A stretch of 64,000 nt of DNA. Source: Candidatus Magasanikbacteria bacterium CG10_big_fil_rev_8_21_14_0_10_36_32 (GTDB lineage Bacteria > Patescibacteriota > Patescibacteriia > Magasanikbacterales > GWA2-37-8). The stretch covers positions 303,766-367,765 of the forward strand of contig PFBV01000003.1 in the NCBI GenBank assembly GCA_002778465.1. Direction: 5' to 3'. The notes beneath the pieces are model-generated. The model made no database searches. It worked only from the letters and a program-made list of their open reading frames with translations, and was not told the origin of the DNA. Both the position numbers and the translations under genes were made by a program. Positions 2,223 to 63,640 of this stretch are shown here, piece by piece (position 1 is the first letter of the stretch; every line of letters starts with the position of its first letter).

Positions 2223-2592
2223 TGAGTAGTTTTTAATAAATGGTGAGGTGTGGATGAATCTGTGCATAACTTGGGCTAAAGGGGGATAGATGTATAGAGC
2301 AGTGTATACAAATCTCACAATTCACATGGTGTTATTAACGGTGTTTTTAGTTTAGTAAAAGTGTTTTTTGTTGTTTTTTATTAAGAAAGTGGTAGAAATA
2401 AACATTGATTCTTATATTTGCGGGGGGGGTAGTGTGGAAAATCAAAGTGGATCAAAATCAGGATGTTTTGAAGGGTTGACAAAATTTCAAAAATATATTA
2501 TACATAATTTATACAATTTAAAATCCTGTTCAGTTTGAACAGGTCTCTGGCCCGGAGTTAGGGCAAAAGGAGCGGGTGATAACAAGCCCGAA

Positions 2593-3324
2593 GTGAATAT
2601 GATGGCGAATCCGTTGGAAGAGTTTAAAGATGTGCCATACGGCCGATGGGCCGCATTGGGACATAAACTTGGAGGTTTGAAGGCAATTGAGGTTATACTC
2701 AAAGACGATGAATTGGCGCGACGAATCAGAAAGCAGATTGCTGATGTTAATGTTACCACTATTATTCTGTCCGACGAGCGGACCCGCTTCTACAAGGAAG
2801 TCTTCGGTCTGACCGTGGATCTCTCCAAGGTGAGGCTCCCGCCCGAAACCGAAGGTTTCGGCTGGACGCTGACCATCGCCAAGGAGCTCGGTGACAAGCC
2901 ACTCGCCACAGTCATGGCCGCCTGTCGGAAGCTGTTCAAGGGCAATGTCTGGCAGTACGCCGACGACCTGGACAATTCCGTCCCGACCAACGACCGCGAC
3001 CCCCGACGCGACGGTTCCTACATCATCCGCGTCAGAGACAGAGTGGAAGCCGACGAGGAGAACAAGAATCTCTCGGCCGACACAGTCAAGTCGCGCAACA
3101 TGGTCACCCTGACACTGTTGGAGCGCATCGTCCTGGAGCTATTCTGCTTCTGGAAGACCGGCAAGCACCTGGACATCCAGAACACCACCCTTTGCTCCGG
3201 TTCGCGCAACTTCGATGGCGGTGTTCCGGGTTGTTGCTTGCGCGGCGGCGAGTTCGAGGTTTGCTGGCGCGGCTCGTCCAGTTGCCGCGGCGCTCTCCGC
3301 GCTCGCGAAGCAGTTTTGACCTAA
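2593..3324 (+). CDS. Conserved hypothetical protein, paralog 1 of 3 in this window. The first ATG is at 2599. The gene lies in a GC-rich island
   Basis: Shares FYKEVFGLTV...GDKPL...NDRDP...GSYIIRVRD..EADEENKNLSAD...TLTLLERIVLELFCFWKTGKHLD...TLCSGSR with ORFs 14464-15051 and 38361-39230. Upstream promoter-like TTGACA (2476-2481), 16-nt spacer, TATATT. GC rises to about 60% from about 2775 onward. Confidence 0.6.
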   Translation: MNMMANPLEEFKDVPYGRWAALGHKLGGLKAIEVILKDDELARRIRKQIADVNVTTIILSDERTRFYKEVFGLTVDLSKVRLPPETEGFGWTLTIAKELGDKPLATVMAACRKLFKGNVWQYADDLDNSVPTNDRDPRRDGSYIIRVRDRVEADEENKNLSADTVKSRNMVTLTLLERIVLELFCFWKTGKHLDIQNTTLCSGSRNFDGGVPGCCLRGGEFEVCWRGSSSCRGALRAREAVLT

Positions 3325-3337
3325 CCCTTTTTCCTTC

Positions 3338-3385
3338 GTTCTTTAATTCTTCGCCCCCTTGCGTCTTGCACAAGGGGGTTTTTTG
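3338..3385 (+). terminator. Rho-independent terminator
   Basis: GCCCCCTTG-cgtcttgc-ACAAGGGGG followed by TTTTTT. Confidence 0.7.
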
Positions 3386-5936: not shown

Positions 5937-6563
5937 ATGAAAAAAACCGCCATTGCAGTCATACTTGTTATAAATTTATTTTTTCCTCTAAATTCTTTTG
6001 GGGCGATGTCTTCAACTAATTATTCAATTTACGCCGATGCTATAGATTCGGGCGGTAATTTAAGTACGGGAGGAATTTACAGTTTGGAAGATACGATTGG
6101 AGAATCGCCGGTTGGTTTTACTACTAGTACATGGTATGAAATTCGTGCCGGCTATCAAGCTATGGAGCGAGGTTATATTACTATGACTATTGATAATTCA
6201 ACTTTGAATTTGGGCAGTTTGAGTCAAATTGCTGTTAATTCAGCTTCTGCCAATGTGACAGTCAGCACAGATTCGGCTTCTGGTTATATTCTTTCTATTC
6301 AAAGCGTGAGTGGCACAGGATTGACCGCAGTAAGTGATGGTGAGGTGACGGTCGGGAGCGAAGAGTATGGTGTTTCTACTTCCGGCAGTGAAAGTGTGGT
6401 TAGTGGTGATGTGGGAGTGGAGGGCGGAACTTTTTTGGCAGAATCCATTTCAGCTATTGATAACAGCGTGACACAACTTACTTTTAAAGCTTCAATAAAT
6501 GCCGCTTCAGTTGTTGGAAGTTATAATCAAACAGTTACATTATCTGCTTCGGCAAATTGGTAA
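5937..6563 (+). CDS. Secreted Ser/Thr/Gly-rich hypothetical protein (signal peptide)
   Basis: N-terminal MKKTAIAVILVINLFFPLNSFGA signal. First gene of four tightly packed co-directional genes. Confidence 0.5.
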   Translation: MKKTAIAVILVINLFFPLNSFGAMSSTNYSIYADAIDSGGNLSTGGIYSLEDTIGESPVGFTTSTWYEIRAGYQAMERGYITMTIDNSTLNLGSLSQIAVNSASANVTVSTDSASGYILSIQSVSGTGLTAVSDGEVTVGSEEYGVSTSGSESVVSGDVGVEGGTFLAESISAIDNSVTQLTFKASINAASVVGSYNQTVTLSASANW

Positions 6564-7459
6564 ATTTTATGTTTAAAAAATTTTTATTTGTTTTGTTAAT
6601 TTGTTTTTTATGGGTTGGAAAAGCGGAAGCTTTTTCGATTAGTCCTTTAAAATATGTGGTTACCGTATCTCCGCGATCAAGCGAAGAGGTAGAAATAAAA
6701 ATTAAAAACGACCAATTAGTTAGCCAGAGATATGTTTTAAAGGTATTAGGAACGAAACAGAACAATCAAGGAGAATTAATTTTTTCAGAAGGTGTCAATC
6801 AAGCTGAAAATTGGGTTAAGCCAGAGAAAAATGTTGTACAAATTGATCCTGGCGAAGAAGTCACGGTTAATTTTTTTATAAAAACTGATTCTTTGGCTGA
6901 GTCTGGCTCATATTTTTTAGGTTTAGCAGCGGAGAATGTTGATTTAGGAGAACGGGAGGTTGGATTATCCGGAGAGTTAGTTTGTTTATTGTTATTACAA
7001 GTGTCTGGTCAGGTGCAGGAAAATTTATCGGTAACAAATTGGCAAACGGAAAATATAACTATAAATAAAATTTGGAACTTTGATCTATCAATTAAAAATA
7101 CATCTGCAGTTGAATTGCCAATTCAGTCAGAATTAATTATAAGAAATTGGCGTAATAAAATTATTTATAGAGAGTTGAATGATTTGGGATTATTGTTGCC
7201 ACAGGCAGACAGAATTTTTCAACAAAAAATTGACATGGTCGGACAAACATTTTTTTCAGGAAGTTATTCCGCGACCTTAAATATAATTTATGGACGAACC
7301 AATCAAATAAAAACTTTGGTTAAAAATTTTTGGAGAATATCTCCTGTTTGGATAATAATTTTAAGTGTAGTTGCAGTTGGAATAATAACTTTATTATATA
7401 GAATAAAAAAGAGAATGGTTGTTAAATTAAAAAAATATATTGAAAATTTTCAAGCATAA
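6557..7459 (+). CDS. Secreted hypothetical protein with C-terminal TM anchor
   Basis: Signal peptide LLICFLWVGKAEA; C-terminal WIIILSVVAVGIITLLYRIKKR anchor; overlaps the upstream gene by 7 nt. Confidence 0.5.
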   Translation: MVNFMFKKFLFVLLICFLWVGKAEAFSISPLKYVVTVSPRSSEEVEIKIKNDQLVSQRYVLKVLGTKQNNQGELIFSEGVNQAENWVKPEKNVVQIDPGEEVTVNFFIKTDSLAESGSYFLGLAAENVDLGEREVGLSGELVCLLLLQVSGQVQENLSVTNWQTENITINKIWNFDLSIKNTSAVELPIQSELIIRNWRNKIIYRELNDLGLLLPQADRIFQQKIDMVGQTFFSGSYSATLNIIYGRTNQIKTLVKNFWRISPVWIIILSVVAVGIITLLYRIKKRMVVKLKKYIENFQA

Positions 7460-8402: not shown

Positions 8403-11288
8403 ATGACTAAAGCATTTCGTACAATTGTATTTTTTTTAGCGGCAGCGGCATTGTTGGCAACAGTCAGCATTGTTCAGGCGGCTACTTTTTCTTTAGAACC
8501 GGCTTCTGGAACTTTAATTAAAGGATGTCCGGCTTCTATTAATGTTAAATTAAATACTGGTAGCCAGTCGTCAAACGGCGCTCAAATTTATGTTGATTAT
8601 ACTGGTGTGAGCAGTGCCAACATGTCAGGCACGGGTTTATTTACGAGTTACGGTTTACCGCCGGGCTTGCCGGCCGGCACAGCTGGTTTGTATGGTTATG
8701 GAGGAGTGGTTTCTGGGGCATCTTTAAATTTTGGTCGCATTAATTTTACTGCTGGCGCACTGGGCACAGTTGGTTTAACTATTCGTTTTGGAGGCACAGA
8801 CAGTCTTGTTAGTAAAGTCGCAGCTTATCCTACCAGTGAAAATATACTTACCAGTGTTGTTTCTGGTTCATATACCATAGTCAATGGTTATTGTGAAACG
8901 GCTCCGCCGTATTTGGTTAATTTGATTCCGGCACCAGGAACGCCGAATCATCCGATTGATGAAAATATAAAGTTTGACATTAAAGATGATGGTTCCGGAG
9001 TGAATATATCTTCGTTGGTGGTTACGGTACAACAAAACGAAACAGATGTTCCTTTTAATATATCCACTGTTTTAAAAAGCACAACACAAGGTTGGTATTC
9101 AGTTGATATTGATCCGATTAATAACTTAATCCCAGAATTAAAAGTGGTTGTGACAGTAAATGTCTCAGATAATGCCGGCAATGCTTTATCCCGTTCCTAT
9201 TATTTTAATGATCTAACTTGCTCACAATTGGGTTGCGCGGTTGGGGGAGCGGTAGCTCAGTGTAATGATGGTATTGATAATGAGGGAGATGGAAGTGTTG
9301 ATTTTCCTAGCGATTCTGGTTGTGATAGTGTTGATGATAATAGTGAATATGTGTTGGGTGACATAGTTTGTACACAAGTTATTTCAACATCCACTTCGCC
9401 GGTTTGTCCATCACCGATTTGTGTTTCCGGCATATCGTCACAATGTAATGATGGTGTAGACAATGACAATGATAATTTGATTGACATGGCCGATCCAGGT
9501 TGTGATAGCGGAGATGATAACAATGAGTATGTTTTCGGTGAAGTTAAATGTCCAATTTGCCCATCTATAATTACCACTCCAACCATTACTCCTCCATTTA
9601 TTTCACCAACCACCACCCAACAGATTTTTGATGTGGGTGATTTAAAATTTTTCTTGGCTAGCCGAACAGTAGAAACAAAAGCCAGTAATTTAAGTGTGGT
9701 TGAAGATTTAGTGGGGATGAGTTTTGCGGTAGGAGCTAACATTAAAGATGTACAAGGTCCAATTACCGGAGTTTATTTAGTTTTGGGCGGAAAAACTTAT
9801 TCAATGTATTTTGATAATGGTTTAAAAATGTATGTCGCGGATGTGTTAGATTTAAACGAGGTGGAAATTTTAAACGGTATTGTTAGTGTTAAACATGGAA
9901 CCAATCAAGAAGATACCGCACAGTTTGTTTTATCTGTTTTAACATCAGGCATTGTTAGCAGTAAAGATCAAGATGGAAAAATCAATCCTTTGCCCGGTGC
10001 AACAGTTGTTTTAGAACAATTATCTTCTGCTAATAAATATATACAAATTAAAACAGCCATAACTAATAATCGCGGAGAATATGGATTTGTTTTGCCAAAT
10101 GGCAGTTATCGATTAAAAATTGATTCTGAAGGATATAAAAATCAAATTACCAGTGGTTTTACAATTACCAACCACATTATTAATCGGTTTTTCGTAATGT
10201 TCCCAAAGGTAGATTTGCTTTCGCCAGATGTTTCTTTGGGTGAGAAAATTACTTATATAGGAGATGTTGCGGGGGAGCAAACGAATAAAATTATTGAGAG
10301 TGTTAATGATCCAATAGTTGAACAAACAGCCAAAACAACCGTTGCCCCAATAGCTTTGGGCGCGGCCGTGGCAGCCACTGTTCCGGCTTTGTCATTTTTA
10401 AATTTAATTTCTTATTTAAGATTTTTATTTTTACAGCCAGTTTTCTTGTTTGGGCGCAAAAAAAGAAAGAAATGGGGAATTGTTTATAATGCGCTTACCA
10501 AAATGCCGATTGATTTGGCGTTGATTAGACTGTTAGATGTTAAGACAAACAAAGTAATTCAATCTCGTGTTACCGACACAGAAGGTCGTTATGCATTTTT
10601 TGTTGATCCCGGTTTGTACCGTCTTGAAGTGGTTAAACAAAGTTTGATGTTCCCGACTAAAATTTTACAGGATTTTAAAGAAGATACGACATTTTTGGAT
10701 ATTTATCATGGTGAGGCGATTCATGTGGATGAAAAATACACTGCCATTGCCGCTAACATCCCCATGGATCCGGTAGGTGTGGAAGAAAAAACACCACGTC
10801 GCATTATTTGGAGTCAGCGTTTGAGAGATTTACAAAGTTTTATTGCTTCATTGAGTATTGTTGCTGGTTTGGTTGCTTTAATAATTTCACCAACTTGGTG
10901 GACAATTGGATTATTTGTTTTCCAAATCGCAATTTATTATTTATTCAAACGTTTATCATCTGCTAAAAAACCAAAGAGTTGGGGTATTGTTTATGAAAAA
11001 ACGAATAATCAACCAGTCGACCGAGCGATGGCAAGATTATTTAGTAAGCAATTTAATAAATTAGTTGCTTCTGAATTGACTGATAATAACGGTCGTTATG
11101 CTTTCATGGTTGGACCAAATGATTATTATATAACTTTTGAAAAAACAGGTTACCAGAAAAAAACTACACCTGATATTAAAATTAAAGAACGGAATGAAAT
11201 TATTAAAGTCAATGTTGCTATGGATCGAGATGAATCATCAAAACCAATTTCAACCACTTCTAATCCTGTTCCGCCGGTTAAAAATTAA
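8403..11288 (+). CDS. Large (961 aa) surface protein. Modules: N-terminal cohesin-like beta domain, two Cys-rich CNDG(I/V)DN-type repeats, three CarboxypepD_reg-like domains, and internal TM segments
   Basis: Signal peptide FFLAAAALLATVSIVQA. Repeats QCNDGIDNEGDGSVDFPSDSGCDSVDDNSEY and QCNDGVDNDNDNLIDMADPGCDSGDDNNEY. Repeated KKWGIVYNALTKMPID...TDTEGRYAF and KSWGIVYEKTNNQPVD...TDNNGRYAF modules. Confidence 0.55.
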   Translation: MTKAFRTIVFFLAAAALLATVSIVQAATFSLEPASGTLIKGCPASINVKLNTGSQSSNGAQIYVDYTGVSSANMSGTGLFTSYGLPPGLPAGTAGLYGYGGVVSGASLNFGRINFTAGALGTVGLTIRFGGTDSLVSKVAAYPTSENILTSVVSGSYTIVNGYCETAPPYLVNLIPAPGTPNHPIDENIKFDIKDDGSGVNISSLVVTVQQNETDVPFNISTVLKSTTQGWYSVDIDPINNLIPELKVVVTVNVSDNAGNALSRSYYFNDLTCSQLGCAVGGAVAQCNDGIDNEGDGSVDFPSDSGCDSVDDNSEYVLGDIVCTQVISTSTSPVCPSPICVSGISSQCNDGVDNDNDNLIDMADPGCDSGDDNNEYVFGEVKCPICPSIITTPTITPPFISPTTTQQIFDVGDLKFFLASRTVETKASNLSVVEDLVGMSFAVGANIKDVQGPITGVYLVLGGKTYSMYFDNGLKMYVADVLDLNEVEILNGIVSVKHGTNQEDTAQFVLSVLTSGIVSSKDQDGKINPLPGATVVLEQLSSANKYIQIKTAITNNRGEYGFVLPNGSYRLKIDSEGYKNQITSGFTITNHIINRFFVMFPKVDLLSPDVSLGEKITYIGDVAGEQTNKIIESVNDPIVEQTAKTTVAPIALGAAVAATVPALSFLNLISYLRFLFLQPVFLFGRKKRKKWGIVYNALTKMPIDLALIRLLDVKTNKVIQSRVTDTEGRYAFFVDPGLYRLEVVKQSLMFPTKILQDFKEDTTFLDIYHGEAIHVDEKYTAIAANIPMDPVGVEEKTPRRIIWSQRLRDLQSFIASLSIVAGLVALIISPTWWTIGLFVFQIAIYYLFKRLSSAKKPKSWGIVYEKTNNQPVDRAMARLFSKQFNKLVASELTDNNGRYAFMVGPNDYYITFEKTGYQKKTTPDIKIKERNEIIKVNVAMDRDESSKPISTTSNPVPPVKN

Positions 11289-14351: not shown

Positions 14352-14463
14352 GATTTTATACCCTTGATATTTTGTTTAAAATTTGCTATAGTTTATAGTG
14401 TTCTTTACAAAACAATAAAATTGTATCAATAAGAGAAACAGACCAAACGGACGGAGACATAAA

Positions 14464-15051
14464 ATGTCCCATAATCAAAAATTAAATAAAAATTCTGTCT
14501 GGGTTAAGGAATGGATTAAATTTTATAAAGAAATTTTTGGCTTGGCTATTAATGTTTCAAACATTTTTATTCCGCCCAAAATCAAAGGTTTCAACCGACC
14601 AATGATTATTGCTCGTGAGATTGGTGATTCTCCGTTGGAAATGACAATGGTTACTTGTCAAAGATTATTTTCTTACATCAGTTATATTGGTGATAATCCA
14701 GATGAACTAATTTCAGTTACTAATCGTAACCCGCGATATAAAGGTTCCTATGCCATTCGTGTTCGTGACGGAATAGAAGCTGATGAGGAGAACAAAAATC
14801 TTTCGGCTGATGATATTAGATCTCAAAGTATGATTACAATGACTTTGTTGGAACGCATTATTTTAGAGTTGTTTTATTTTTGGAAGACAGGACAACATCT
14901 AGATAATCAACATTGGACTCTTTGTTCCGGCCCACGCAACAAGGCAGGGCAAATTCCATGCTGTTATTGGTACAAAAATATATTTTGGATATTTTGGTAT
15001 AATTCTGCCAATGCAATTGGCGATTTTCGCGCTCGTTCCGTGATTGTTTAA
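14464..15051 (+). CDS. Conserved hypothetical protein, paralog 2 of 3
   Basis: FYKEIFGLAINVS...GDSPL...NRNPRYKGSYAIRVRDGIEADEENKNLSADDI...TMTLLERIILELFYFWKTGQHLD...TLCSGPRN. Own TTGATA-17-TATAGT promoter upstream. Confidence 0.6.
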   Translation: MSHNQKLNKNSVWVKEWIKFYKEIFGLAINVSNIFIPPKIKGFNRPMIIAREIGDSPLEMTMVTCQRLFSYISYIGDNPDELISVTNRNPRYKGSYAIRVRDGIEADEENKNLSADDIRSQSMITMTLLERIILELFYFWKTGQHLDNQHWTLCSGPRNKAGQIPCCYWYKNIFWIFWYNSANAIGDFRARSVIV

Positions 15052-15072: not shown

Positions 15073-15100
15073 CACCCGCCCCAAAGGGCGGGTGTTTTTA
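15073..15100 (+). terminator. Rho-independent terminator
   Basis: CACCCGCCCCAAAGGGCGGGTG followed by TTTTTA. Confidence 0.7.
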
Positions 15101-15110
15101 TTAAAACAAA

Positions 15111-24377: not shown

Positions 24378-24430
24378 ATTCCCGGCCTTCGTTGGGTTTT
24401 GTTAGAAACAGATTCCAACGAAGGCCGGGA
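24378..24430. repeat. 17-bp perfect inverted repeat (GC-rich hairpin) at the left edge of GC-rich island 2
   Basis: TTCCCGGCCTTCGTTGG, 19-nt loop, CCAACGAAGGCCGGGAA. Confidence 0.6.
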
Positions 24431-24462
24431 ATTGTCCCGTCTTCCTTCTGTCCGCGGAGCGG

Positions 24463-25107
24463 TTGGAAGTACTCCCTTTTTGGGAGAAGGACTTTGTGGC
24501 CGGTTTGGTTCGCGCGGCCGTGGAGAACACGTTTTTCACCGCCATCTCGGACAAGGACGCTCCGGCTCGTTTCGCCGACGCAGTCGCCAAGTGGCGCAAG
24601 CTCGCCAGCGACCTCGGCTACACCGGCCCGGTGCTCTGGCAGGTGAAGGCAGGATTCACTCTGAAGAAGCACGCCCCGCTTGCCGGTCCTTGCTATAAGC
24701 GGTTCGGCTATCTGCAGAACTGCTGGTCGCTTCAGAACGACGAGCCGACGGTTGGCTCTATGGTATTCTATATCCCGCGCATCGTCGCGACGGAGAAGAA
24801 CACCGAAGAACAGAAGCAGGCGCTGGCTAAGCTTCGCAAGAAGTACGGCCTGCCCGAGAGCCATCTGTCCTCGTTCGGTTCGGCTGCCTTGGTTTCCGGT
24901 CTTATTCTGGCGCATTTCAAGCGCACGGGCGAGCGCGCTCCGTTCAACAGAAATTGGGTTCGCACCGATACCCTGCGCACGGATGACTACCGGCTCGGTC
25001 TCGGCGACTTTGATGAGGACGGGCTCTACTGCGACCACTGCCGCTGGGGTGACGGCTGCGGCGTTAGTCTCGGGGTCTTTCCTTTGGGGGTGGAGCTGGG
25101 TTTCTAG
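24463..25107 (+). CDS. GC-rich (about 60% GC, high GC3) foreign ORF of unknown function. It has no in-frame ATG start (TTG at 24463) and is possibly a gene remnant
   Basis: Coherent high-GC3 codon usage in this frame only. The minus-strand 227-aa ORF is Arg/Leu/Ala-rich antisense noise. The first in-frame ATG is near 24760. Confidence 0.4.
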   Translation: MEVLPFWEKDFVAGLVRAAVENTFFTAISDKDAPARFADAVAKWRKLASDLGYTGPVLWQVKAGFTLKKHAPLAGPCYKRFGYLQNCWSLQNDEPTVGSMVFYIPRIVATEKNTEEQKQALAKLRKKYGLPESHLSSFGSAALVSGLILAHFKRTGERAPFNRNWVRTDTLRTDDYRLGLGDFDEDGLYCDHCRWGDGCGVSLGVFPLGVELGF

Positions 25108-25278
25108 GTCGCTTAGTTCTTTTTGTTAGTTCTTGGGTCCTTGGCGTTTTGGCGCTTAGGATCCTTTTTTATTTCATTTTTGCGGAGTATAATAGCAGTC
25201 TGTTCATTAATTTTATCTATGGTAAATTTGCGCGAAAAAATCAGCGGGCTTAATTTGTCCGTTGTGGAAGAAGGAGTT

Positions 25279-38110: not shown

Positions 38111-38235
38111 AAAAAAGTCAGCCGATACCTGTAATCAAAATTAAACAGATATAGGCGAATTATATCATATTTTTATAAATTCAGACAAAACAGTAAGGTT
38201 TGACAAATCAGGTAAAATGTGTTATTTCTATTATT

Positions 38236-38293
38236 AAGCGAAGTGAGTGAAATAAAAACTTGTTTTTATTTCCGAACGAGCGCAGATAAAGTG
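38236..38293 (+). promoter_or_regulatory. Conserved 5' leader element, copy A (hairpin 38249-38272), upstream of paralog 3
   Basis: AAGCGAAGTGAGTGAAATAAAAACttGTTTTTATTTCCGAACGAGCGCAGATAAAGTG. The same element with compensatory changes occurs at 63579-63640 before rpsO. Confidence 0.5.
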
Positions 38294-38360
38294 GACTCGC
38301 CTTTTATTATTGTTCTTTAACAAGATTTCCATTTTTAATGGATAAAACAAAAGAGGAAAA

Positions 38361-39230
38361 ATGGCAGCGGAAGATTATTTGGATATTGTTGAATTTGCGA
38401 CTTTAAAAAAGTTGTTGTTAAAAATCGGTTGTGAACTTAGGGCATTTGGAGTAGTTAAGCGAGTTGGACCGGGAGCAAAAATAACTCAAGCGGAATTGAT
38501 GAAGTTGAGAAGTTTGGCTTCCGCCTGTGGAATTATGGCCAATGTTCAAAAGGCACTTTTAACACCGTGGCCGGGACAAAACAATGTTATTCCAAATATT
38601 GAAATTCCACCAGCGATTAATTCGGCTAATAAACCTAACAGTCAGACGAATTTACCGTTTGTTCCAATCGGTTTGATTAATATTTGGAGCAGATTTTATA
38701 AAGAAGTGTTTGGTTTGACAGTTAATATGTCAAAAGTTAAGTTTCCGGTTAGAGTGGAACATTTCGGCTGGACAGTGGTGGTGGCCGAAGAGCTTGGTGA
38801 TAAAACGCTTAATACGGTTATTGAAGTCTGTAAAAAAATGTTTTTGGTTCGGACCTATATTCGTAATGATAATTTGCAGTCAGTTGTAACTTTTAATGAT
38901 CGTGACCCGCAAGTTATTGGTTCTTACGCTGTTTATCCGCGCGCCAATCTCATGGCAGATATTGAAAATCTTAATCTTTCAGCCAATGAAATTAAATTAC
39001 GCAGTATTATAACCATGACTCTTTTGGAACGTTTGATTGTGGAAGTTTTTATTTTTTGGAGCCGCAATAAACATTTGGATGAAAAGACATTTACTTTGTG
39101 TTGCGGTTCACGCGATCTGTGGGATGATGTCCCTGTTTGCGGTTATTTGTCTGGTGCGGTATTTCAAATTACAAGCCGTGTTGCAGGTAATTATGATACT
39201 TATTATCGCGCTCGGACTGTAATTTTTTAA
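38361..39230 (+). CDS. Conserved hypothetical protein, paralog 3 of 3 (longer N-terminal extension)
   Basis: RFYKEVFGLTVNMSKV...GDKTLNTVIEVCKKMF...NDRDPQVIGSYAVYPRA...NLNLSANEI...TMTLLERLIVEVFIFWSRNKHLDE...TLCCGSRD. Confidence 0.6.
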   Translation: MAAEDYLDIVEFATLKKLLLKIGCELRAFGVVKRVGPGAKITQAELMKLRSLASACGIMANVQKALLTPWPGQNNVIPNIEIPPAINSANKPNSQTNLPFVPIGLINIWSRFYKEVFGLTVNMSKVKFPVRVEHFGWTVVVAEELGDKTLNTVIEVCKKMFLVRTYIRNDNLQSVVTFNDRDPQVIGSYAVYPRANLMADIENLNLSANEIKLRSIITMTLLERLIVEVFIFWSRNKHLDEKTFTLCCGSRDLWDDVPVCGYLSGAVFQITSRVAGNYDTYYRARTVIF

Positions 39231-39266: not shown

Positions 39267-39295
39267 CGACCCCGCATAAATGCGGGGTCTTTTTT
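39267..39295 (+). terminator. Rho-independent terminator
   Basis: GACCCCGCAtaaaTGCGGGGTC followed by TTTTTTATTTT. Confidence 0.7.
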
Positions 39296-39328
39296 ATTTT
39301 ATGTGATATAATATAAACAATACTATTT

Positions 39329-63545: not shown

Positions 63546-63577
63546 TTGACATAAAAGCCTTTTTTTGATACTATTAT
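63546..63577 (+). promoter_or_regulatory. Sigma-70-type promoter for rpsO
   Basis: TTGACA (63546-63551), 17-nt spacer, TACTAT/TATTAT. Confidence 0.5.
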
Positions 63578-63578
63578 C

Positions 63579-63640
63579 AAGCGAAGTGAGTGAAATGAAA
63601 ATTTATTTTCATTTCCAAACGAAACGCAGATAAAATGAGT
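63579..63640 (+). promoter_or_regulatory. Conserved 5' leader element, copy B (hairpin 63592-63615), upstream of rpsO
   Basis: AAGCGAAGTGAGTGAAATGAAAATttATTTTCATTTCCAAACGAAACGCAGATAAAATG. The hairpin arms differ from copy A at two positions with compensatory changes. Confidence 0.5.

Follow-up and report, generated by a model that had tools for sequence, protein, structure and literature searches.

Three paralogs of a putative Patescibacterial DGR target family, probably orphaned, in a 64-kb window of a Candidatus Magasanikbacteria genome

The canonical variable proteins of diversity-generating retroelements (DGRs) have a C-type-lectin fold and are exemplified by Mtd (Bordetella phage BPP-1), TvpA (Treponema denticola) and the archaeal protein AvpA. 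They carry a C-terminal variable region (VR) which corresponds to a template (TR) with AAC (Asn) codons, they go together with a reverse transcriptase (RT) and Avd, and a GC hairpin is found on the 3' side; the protein family described in this work resembles them in these last three respects. CPR DGRs form a clade of their own (DGR clade 2), and their targets lack recognisable domains, according to the sections of Roux et al. 2021 (PMC8144416) cited here. Most CPR VR classes were left unassigned as UVR1-6 in the corresponding sections of Wu et al. 2018 (PMC5758913). The same sections describe remote targets in other lineages, with seven non-adjacent targets in Treponema as an example, and DGR parts that work in trans.

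The window analysed here, i.e. the whole stretch of 64 kb of DNA, contains three paralogous ORFs. Most probably these are Patescibacterial DGR targets which are now orphaned, with VRs that became fixed once the DGR had been lost or separated from them. As far as CPR DGR targets are described in the cited parts of PMC8144416 and PMC5758913, the window copies resemble them in host phylum, in size (about 240 aa) and in the lack of a Pfam domain. The family as a whole shares with these targets the lack of a signal peptide or transmembrane segment, a VR made up of the C-terminal 40 or so amino acids, adenine-specific mismatches and, in homologs, the cassette order given below. What sets the window copies apart from CPR DGR targets is that RT, Avd and TR are all absent within about 80 kb and that no variation is seen. 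The scattering of paralogous target genes away from an RT is a feature that they have in common with remote targets such as those of Treponema; however, the latter share the DNA backbone of one TR, whereas the window VRs are about 50% identical and match none of the collected TRs.

All three ORFs are located on the plus strand. Copy 1 (2593-3324) encodes 243 aa when read from GTG at 2593, while public gene calls start at ATG 2599 (241 aa; PIT88573.1). Copy 2 (14464-15051; 195 aa) consists of nearly the core alone and has the GC content of its host (0.35). Copy 3 (38361-39230; 289 aa) has the longest N-terminal extension and is the most divergent of the three. An alignment revealed a C-terminal core of approximately 180 aa with 42-47% identity among the three ORFs and 57 invariant columns. 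The earlier note had reported these coordinates, a shared core with a list of motifs, and N-terminal extensions of different length. The homology was confirmed, every listed motif was found in the alignment, and the extensions are indeed about 60 aa (copy 1), 15 aa (copy 2) and 110 aa (copy 3) long. Its statement that the copies are no assembly duplicates likewise stands: their DNA differs substantially, and the only DNA repeat between copies is 82 nt long at 73% identity. The description of the copies as separate transcription-unit-like genes was also right. When a profile HMM of the family was run against the six-frame translation of the window, it matched these three copies only (E 1e-87, 4e-79 and 8e-66; next match E>1). 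With these E-values, each ORF is homologous to proteins for which a C-terminal VR has been demonstrated (see below).

A Pfam or profile search of the core, as suggested in the earlier note, was done, and Pfam, NCBIfam, PHROGs, PADLOC and PDB sequences gave no significant match to the family. Below threshold, Pfam PF22656 scored E 0.22 (11.8 bits, cutoff 27) and PDB entry 3r4q, a glyoxalase-like protein, E 1.6. These two weak glyoxalase/VOC matches align at the same two motifs, FYKEVFGL and GSYAIRVRD. Membership of the VOC/glyoxalase group thus has sub-threshold matches behind it and no significant profile match. A word-indexed search retrieved only 64 relatives, all of them Patescibacterial and annotated as 'hypothetical'. 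An exhaustive profile search yielded 2283 cluster representatives at 50% identity, and the named matches all came from Patescibacteria or an unclassified MAG. In IMG/VR, partial matches (residues ~100-241) were obtained in only 3 of 2.9 million viral contigs (L079-L081). None of the three contigs contains an RT or Avd homolog, and on this basis the family is not evidently phage-borne.

For a census of neighbourhoods in related genomes, which the earlier note had also proposed, 66 loci were fetched from species-representative genomes. In 30 of the 66, an RT lies 0.7-1.3 kb downstream of the target, with distance and orientation conserved. A bAvd gene of opposite orientation is usually present between target and RT, and an Avd match was found in most of the 30 RT loci. 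The order of the cassette in these homologs is target, TR, Avd (opposite strand) and RT. An example is homolog P0006. Downstream of it come a bAvd gene in opposite orientation and then an RVT_1 reverse transcriptase, and its last 124 nt recur about 400 bp downstream as a TR that has AAC codons at the sites of variation in the gene.

Over 28 alignable VR/TR pairs, 523 of 579 mismatches were at TR adenines. In many of the pairs the mismatches were wholly at adenines (for instance 20/20 in L008, 19/19 in L011, 24/24 in L016 and 20/20 in L022). The templates encode approximately GSRNSDGNVPNVNWNSDxKFKVNWYNPDNANDNLRARSEV, in which Asn codons mark the sites of variation in the genes. At one locus (L006) two flanking targets share a single TR, from which they differ at A in 18/20 and 20/21 mismatches, and the two co-templated VRs are about 82% identical to each other. 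Because of the adenine bias of the mismatches and the RT/bAvd context in relatives, the family is identified as the variable (target) protein of Patescibacterial DGRs. Its VR is the last 42 or so residues, from SGSR to LRARxxV. The earlier note had been unable to assign the core to a known family; this still holds in that no curated library recognises it, but the context of the relatives identifies a Patescibacterial DGR target family.

The corresponding VR equivalents in the window were located at 3196-3319 in copy 1 (S202 to V241, the stretch that is copied by TRs in DGR-linked homologs), at 14926-15046 in copy 2 (AT-rich; DNA about 51% identical to the copy 1 VR) and at 39102-39225 in copy 3, all on the plus strand. 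The VR of copy 1 is rich in NNC codons where templates encode Asn.

Loci lacking a DGR nearby accounted for 29 of the 59 that were evaluable, i.e. had enough flanking sequence. Some of them contain decay products: a 42-aa RT fragment directly downstream of a stand-alone copy (L017), a frameshifted RT at a distance of 4 kb (L035) and an Avd fragment (L018). That about half of the members are without a retroelement at their locus, some of them beside a decayed RT or Avd, suggests that DGR targets are often kept after loss of the mutator.

One might alternatively regard the family as primarily enzymatic or housekeeping, for example a VOC/glyoxalase-like module, in which case DGR linkage would be secondary and the window copies would perform a conserved, non-variable function. 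The extreme conservation outside the VR (RVEADEENKNLSA, TLLER, HLD and TLCSGSR) would fit such a function, as would the weak glyoxalase-like similarities at FYxxVFGL and GSYAIRVRD and the lack of a nearby DGR for half of the family members. Those similarities are far below significance, however, and no curated family matches. Moreover, the conserved gene-TR-Avd-RT synteny and the near-pure adenine mutagenesis of the C-terminus show a family that is built around a diversifiable end, which makes the enzyme reading highly improbable.

The search for DGR parts was then applied to the window itself. No RT or Avd was found in the 64 kb by tblastn, and profile HMMs derived from 23 RT and 20 Avd sequences detected no remnant of either in the six-frame translation of the window; with both methods nothing scored below E 0.09. 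The window contains no TR, and its VRs match none of the 28 collected TRs. In contigs which extend the window by about 7 kb to the left and about 8 kb to the right, RT, Avd and TR were likewise absent. The source contig (513,182 bp) was not among the best 120 of more than 7494 RT homolog matches. The earlier note had considered three copies notable for a reduced genome; the point remains valid in a modified form, namely as three DGR-type targets, plus one of a second family (see below), in about 80 kb that lack a DGR.

The VRs of the window copies differ strongly from one another. Any two of them are 50-53% identical in DNA, and in an alignment of the set 88 of 135 columns are not uniform. As a consequence one template cannot serve all three, and at most one VR could match any given TR. 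The pattern expected of a DGR with multiple targets, in which VRs are about 80% identical and differ only at TR-A columns, is not seen in the window VRs.

Comparison of independent assemblies revealed complete (100%) DNA identity for copy 1 across 1201 nt (4 assemblies) and for copy 2 across 851 nt (6 assemblies). At the consensus level, copies 1 and 2 do not show variation concentrated in the VR between samples. Among some 15 billion proteins, the protein of each copy is the lone member of its 90%-identity cluster. Given the identity between assemblies and the single-member clusters, the window VRs are fixed at the consensus level.

These results bear on the alternative that a DGR more than 60 kb away in the same genome still uses one copy, most likely copy 1, as a remote target and diversifies it occasionally in trans. 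Such an arrangement has precedents in the non-adjacent targets and trans-acting DGR parts documented in the cited parts of PMC5758913. Copy 1 would be suited for it: its VR is GC-rich and has NNC codons where templates encode Asn, and the canonical TAACCCTT spacer with its hairpin is retained. Another GC-rich target of DGR type is located 21 kb from copy 1, and the scans covered the window and flanks of about 7-8 kb. Nevertheless, identical DNA in 4-6 independent assemblies, the lack of any variant among 15 billion proteins and the fact that a given TR could match one of the three VRs at most make continued diversification unlikely. The reading as orphaned targets with fixed VRs is therefore preferred.

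The three copies differ in base composition (GC 0.57, 0.35 and 0.38 for copies 1, 2 and 3, respectively; window 0.35). In copy 1, GC values of 0.54-0.62 extend from about 2760 to about 3390, and the rise begins near the start of the core. About 70 family genes were compared with their loci; with two exceptions they proved richer in GC, typically by 0.10-0.20, in hosts with a GC content of 0.31-0.52. Examples of gene versus locus GC are 0.57 vs 0.36 and 0.66 vs 0.41. This enrichment could reflect mobility of the cassette, avoidance of adenine or a biased repair process. Since the GC excess over host loci is family-wide, copy 1 is compositionally typical, and it is copies 2 and 3, with their high AT content, that stand out. 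The observation that one copy sits on a GC-rich island was hence real with respect to the numbers but does not describe a peculiarity of this copy, as it is the norm of the family. Few members examined are as rich in AT as copies 2 and 3, and this points to amelioration during a long residence.

A GC-rich gene of another kind is located on the plus strand at 24463-25107. It belongs to a second, unrelated Patescibacterial DGR-target family and is stand-alone in the window. It has no Pfam domain, and its N-terminus is seemingly about 30 aa shorter than that of its homologs. The region 24420-25110 forms a single-gene GC-rich island (about 0.6 vs 0.35), and a 26-bp inverted repeat (24378-24432) lies ahead of the gene. 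At the locus of its homologs P0331 and P0340 (L082), bAvd and RVT_1 genes are present downstream, and a single TR matches two VRs with adenine mismatches of 17/18 and 15/16. Gene GC is elevated there as well (0.65 vs 0.50 for the locus). The second family is similar to the three-paralog family in protein size (about 240 aa), lack of a Pfam domain, GC above that of the host, an adenine-biased C-terminal VR and downstream bAvd/RVT_1. The two differ in that no sequence homology between them is detectable (hhalign probability 1%). By these assignments, DGR-type targets of two families, four in all, are present in a window that lacks a DGR.

The composition of copy 1 and gene 24463-25107 raises the possibility that both are recent horizontal imports on a small mobile island beside tRNA-Ala. 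Their GC content (0.57-0.62 vs 0.35) with sharp edges is in line with import, and so are the position of tRNA-Ala(cgc) 550 bp upstream of copy 1 and the fact that the closest homologs of copy 1 are only 57% identical. Traces of a mobile element were not found: between 1650 and 3600 there is neither an integrase ORF nor an att-like repeat derived from the tRNA end, and no direct repeats flank copy 1. The GC excess, being family-wide, is by itself no mark of recent transfer, and the locus is identical in every assembly compared. Recent import is thus conceivable but rather doubtful.

Structure prediction, a further check named in the earlier note, was done with AF2 on the basis of a 60-sequence alignment. 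The models were confident for copy 1 (pLDDT 89, about 97 in the core) and copy 2 (pLDDT 94.8, pTM 0.92). They predict the core to be a compact alpha/beta domain in which the VR forms the last beta-strands, preceded by a helical N-terminal extension of lower confidence. Foldseek found no significant PDB match. Its best matches were C-type lectins (MCL, DCIR2, BDCA2 and rhodocetin) and EgtB, with E values of at least 1 and TM scores of 0.2-0.36, which are non-significant. Mtd, TvpA and AvpA were absent among the 50 Foldseek matches listed for either model. The family is likened to the Mtd/TvpA/AvpA type by the predicted display of its VR on terminal beta-strands of a compact alpha/beta domain, but it differs from that type in having no sequence match to any PDB chain and in giving only non-significant Foldseek matches to C-type lectins.

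No signal peptide or transmembrane segment was found in the proteins. Apart from the conserved core helix they lack hydrophobic segments and hence look soluble and possibly intracellular, as has been noted for CPR targets in the cited part of PMC8144416.

The N-terminal modules fall into several classes across the family and appear to be exchangeable. One stand-alone locus (L017) contains two paralogs 4 kb apart (6198-6812 and 10001-10606; = L002), whose core and VR are 100% identical over 150 nt while their N-terminal modules are unrelated. The RT fragment of 42 aa mentioned above lies directly downstream of the second paralog. This pair suggests module shuffling or gene conversion, plus decay of a DGR.

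Taken together with the orphan state of the window copies, the following course of events is proposed. In DGR-linked relatives the TR of about 120 nt, situated 300-400 bp downstream of the gene, would be reverse-transcribed by the adjacent RT together with Avd, with errors at adenines, and the cDNA would overwrite the last 42 or so codons. Some 12-14 Asn-templated positions would thereby be randomised, on the predicted C-terminal beta-strands of the compact alpha/beta domain. The core domain presumably served as a ligand-binding surface that was once written by the DGR. The variable helical N-terminal modules may be exchangeable adaptors which couple the core to different partners. The window copies would represent orphaned targets whose VRs became fixed after the DGR was lost or separated; they would now be ordinary soluble binding proteins with three frozen specificities. 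Copy 1 appears compositionally fresh (GC-rich, NNC codons, canonical 3' flank). Copies 2 and 3 are probably old and have drifted to host composition. In copy 3, in which several near-invariant core residues have been lost (IRVRDRVEADEENKNL -> VYPRANLMADIENLNL), drift may be continuing, and this copy may be diverging in function.

Losses of this kind could also indicate that the copies are decaying, pseudogene-like relics without current function. Besides the residues lost in copy 3, the missing N-terminal module of copy 2 and the seemingly 5'-truncated gene 24463-25107 would speak for decay. On the other hand, the three ORFs are intact and all 13 family-invariant residues are kept in copies 1-3; promoter-like and terminator-like signals are present at each copy, and the AF2 models are highly confident. 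A state of general decay is therefore very improbable, and maintenance as orphaned but functional targets remains the preferred explanation.

A broader proposal goes beyond this explanation. The scaffold that displays the VR might be recognisable neither as a C-type-lectin nor as an Ig fold, which would make it a new VR-presenting fold. About half of the members, the window's three included, would then be DGR-less, 'frozen' intracellular binders of fixed specificity, and new specificities would arise by swaps of N-terminal modules and by import of GC-rich core cassettes, not by ongoing retrohoming. We regard this proposal as speculative and rather unlikely to hold as a whole.

The flanks of the three genes were inspected for signals of expression. 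A promoter-like element, TTGACA-17-TATACA, was read by eye upstream of copy 1 (2476-2504, plus strand); as its last base is not T, it was not listed by the hexamer scan. Ahead of copy 2 the scan did report TTGATA-17-TATAGT (14364-14392, plus strand), which has an extended TG. The earlier claim that each copy has its own promoter can be maintained in the sense of consensus-like hexamers only: the element of copy 2 is convincing, that of copy 1 is readable but non-canonical, and that of copy 3 is poorly spaced.

On the 3' side of each of the three copies, and of most relatives, a pyrimidine-rich spacer leads into a GC hairpin with 8-12 bp. In copy 1 the GC hairpin and T-run (3354-3384, plus strand) come after a spacer which begins with TAACCCTTTTTCC..., and the order of TAACCCTT pyrimidine-rich spacer, GC hairpin and T-run is canonical for the family. 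Copies 2 and 3 are followed on the plus strand by terminator-like hairpins at 15073-15104 and 39268-39299, respectively, each with a 9 bp stem, a 4-nt loop and a T-run. A GC hairpin or IMH-like element 3' of the VR is therefore present, but it is non-specific, as it is also a plausible intrinsic terminator; the hairpin of copy 1 could serve as a terminator, as a DGR target hairpin or in both roles. A recurrent form of the spacer (TAACCCTTGT.CCTT...) between stop codon and GC hairpin/T-run was noticed at 3322-3384 in the window and in five further loci (L006, L012, L022, L029 and L036). The pyrimidine-rich 3' spacer occurs in DGR-linked and stand-alone members alike, and it may be part of DGR target recognition.

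Copy 3 has a 5' leader segment (38228-38295, plus strand) that is about 88% identical to the leader of rpsO (S15) at 63571-63640, in agreement with the earlier note, according to which one copy shares a leader with rpsO. The common part comprises about 65 nt from the -10 region onward and is present twice in the window. Both leaders can form the same hairpin, with one compensatory change from A-U to G-C. Rfam gave no match for this leader, which could be S15-responsive or otherwise a shared regulatory leader.

With these assignments, three 'hypothetical' genes and a fourth one nearby can be labelled as DGR-type variable proteins, and an uncharacterised Patescibacterial family of more than 2000 clusters receives a testable handle. 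Retention of targets after loss of the mutator bears on how CPR bacteria with tiny genomes may acquire and then fix binding specificities. Given the confident models that lack a significant PDB match, the family is a candidate through which one of the CPR VR classes without assignment might be defined. While CPR DGR targets as a class were already known and the current understanding of DGRs is not overturned, there is modest novelty in the fixed and apparently orphaned state of several paralogs, in the GC enrichment throughout the family and in the confident model without a PDB match.

Two further features of the window were recorded. Between approximately 56400 and 63500, about ten small paralogous genes that match PF18895 (T4SS_pilin) are arranged in a tandem array. 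The array is visible as a repeat family of 118 nt (D1), and its genes are annotated in L084/L085. Finally, the stretch between tRNA-Arg(cct) and tRNA-Ala(cgc) contains, at 1826-1961, three instances of the palindrome GTTTCA(C/T)GTGAAAC, which looks like an operator.
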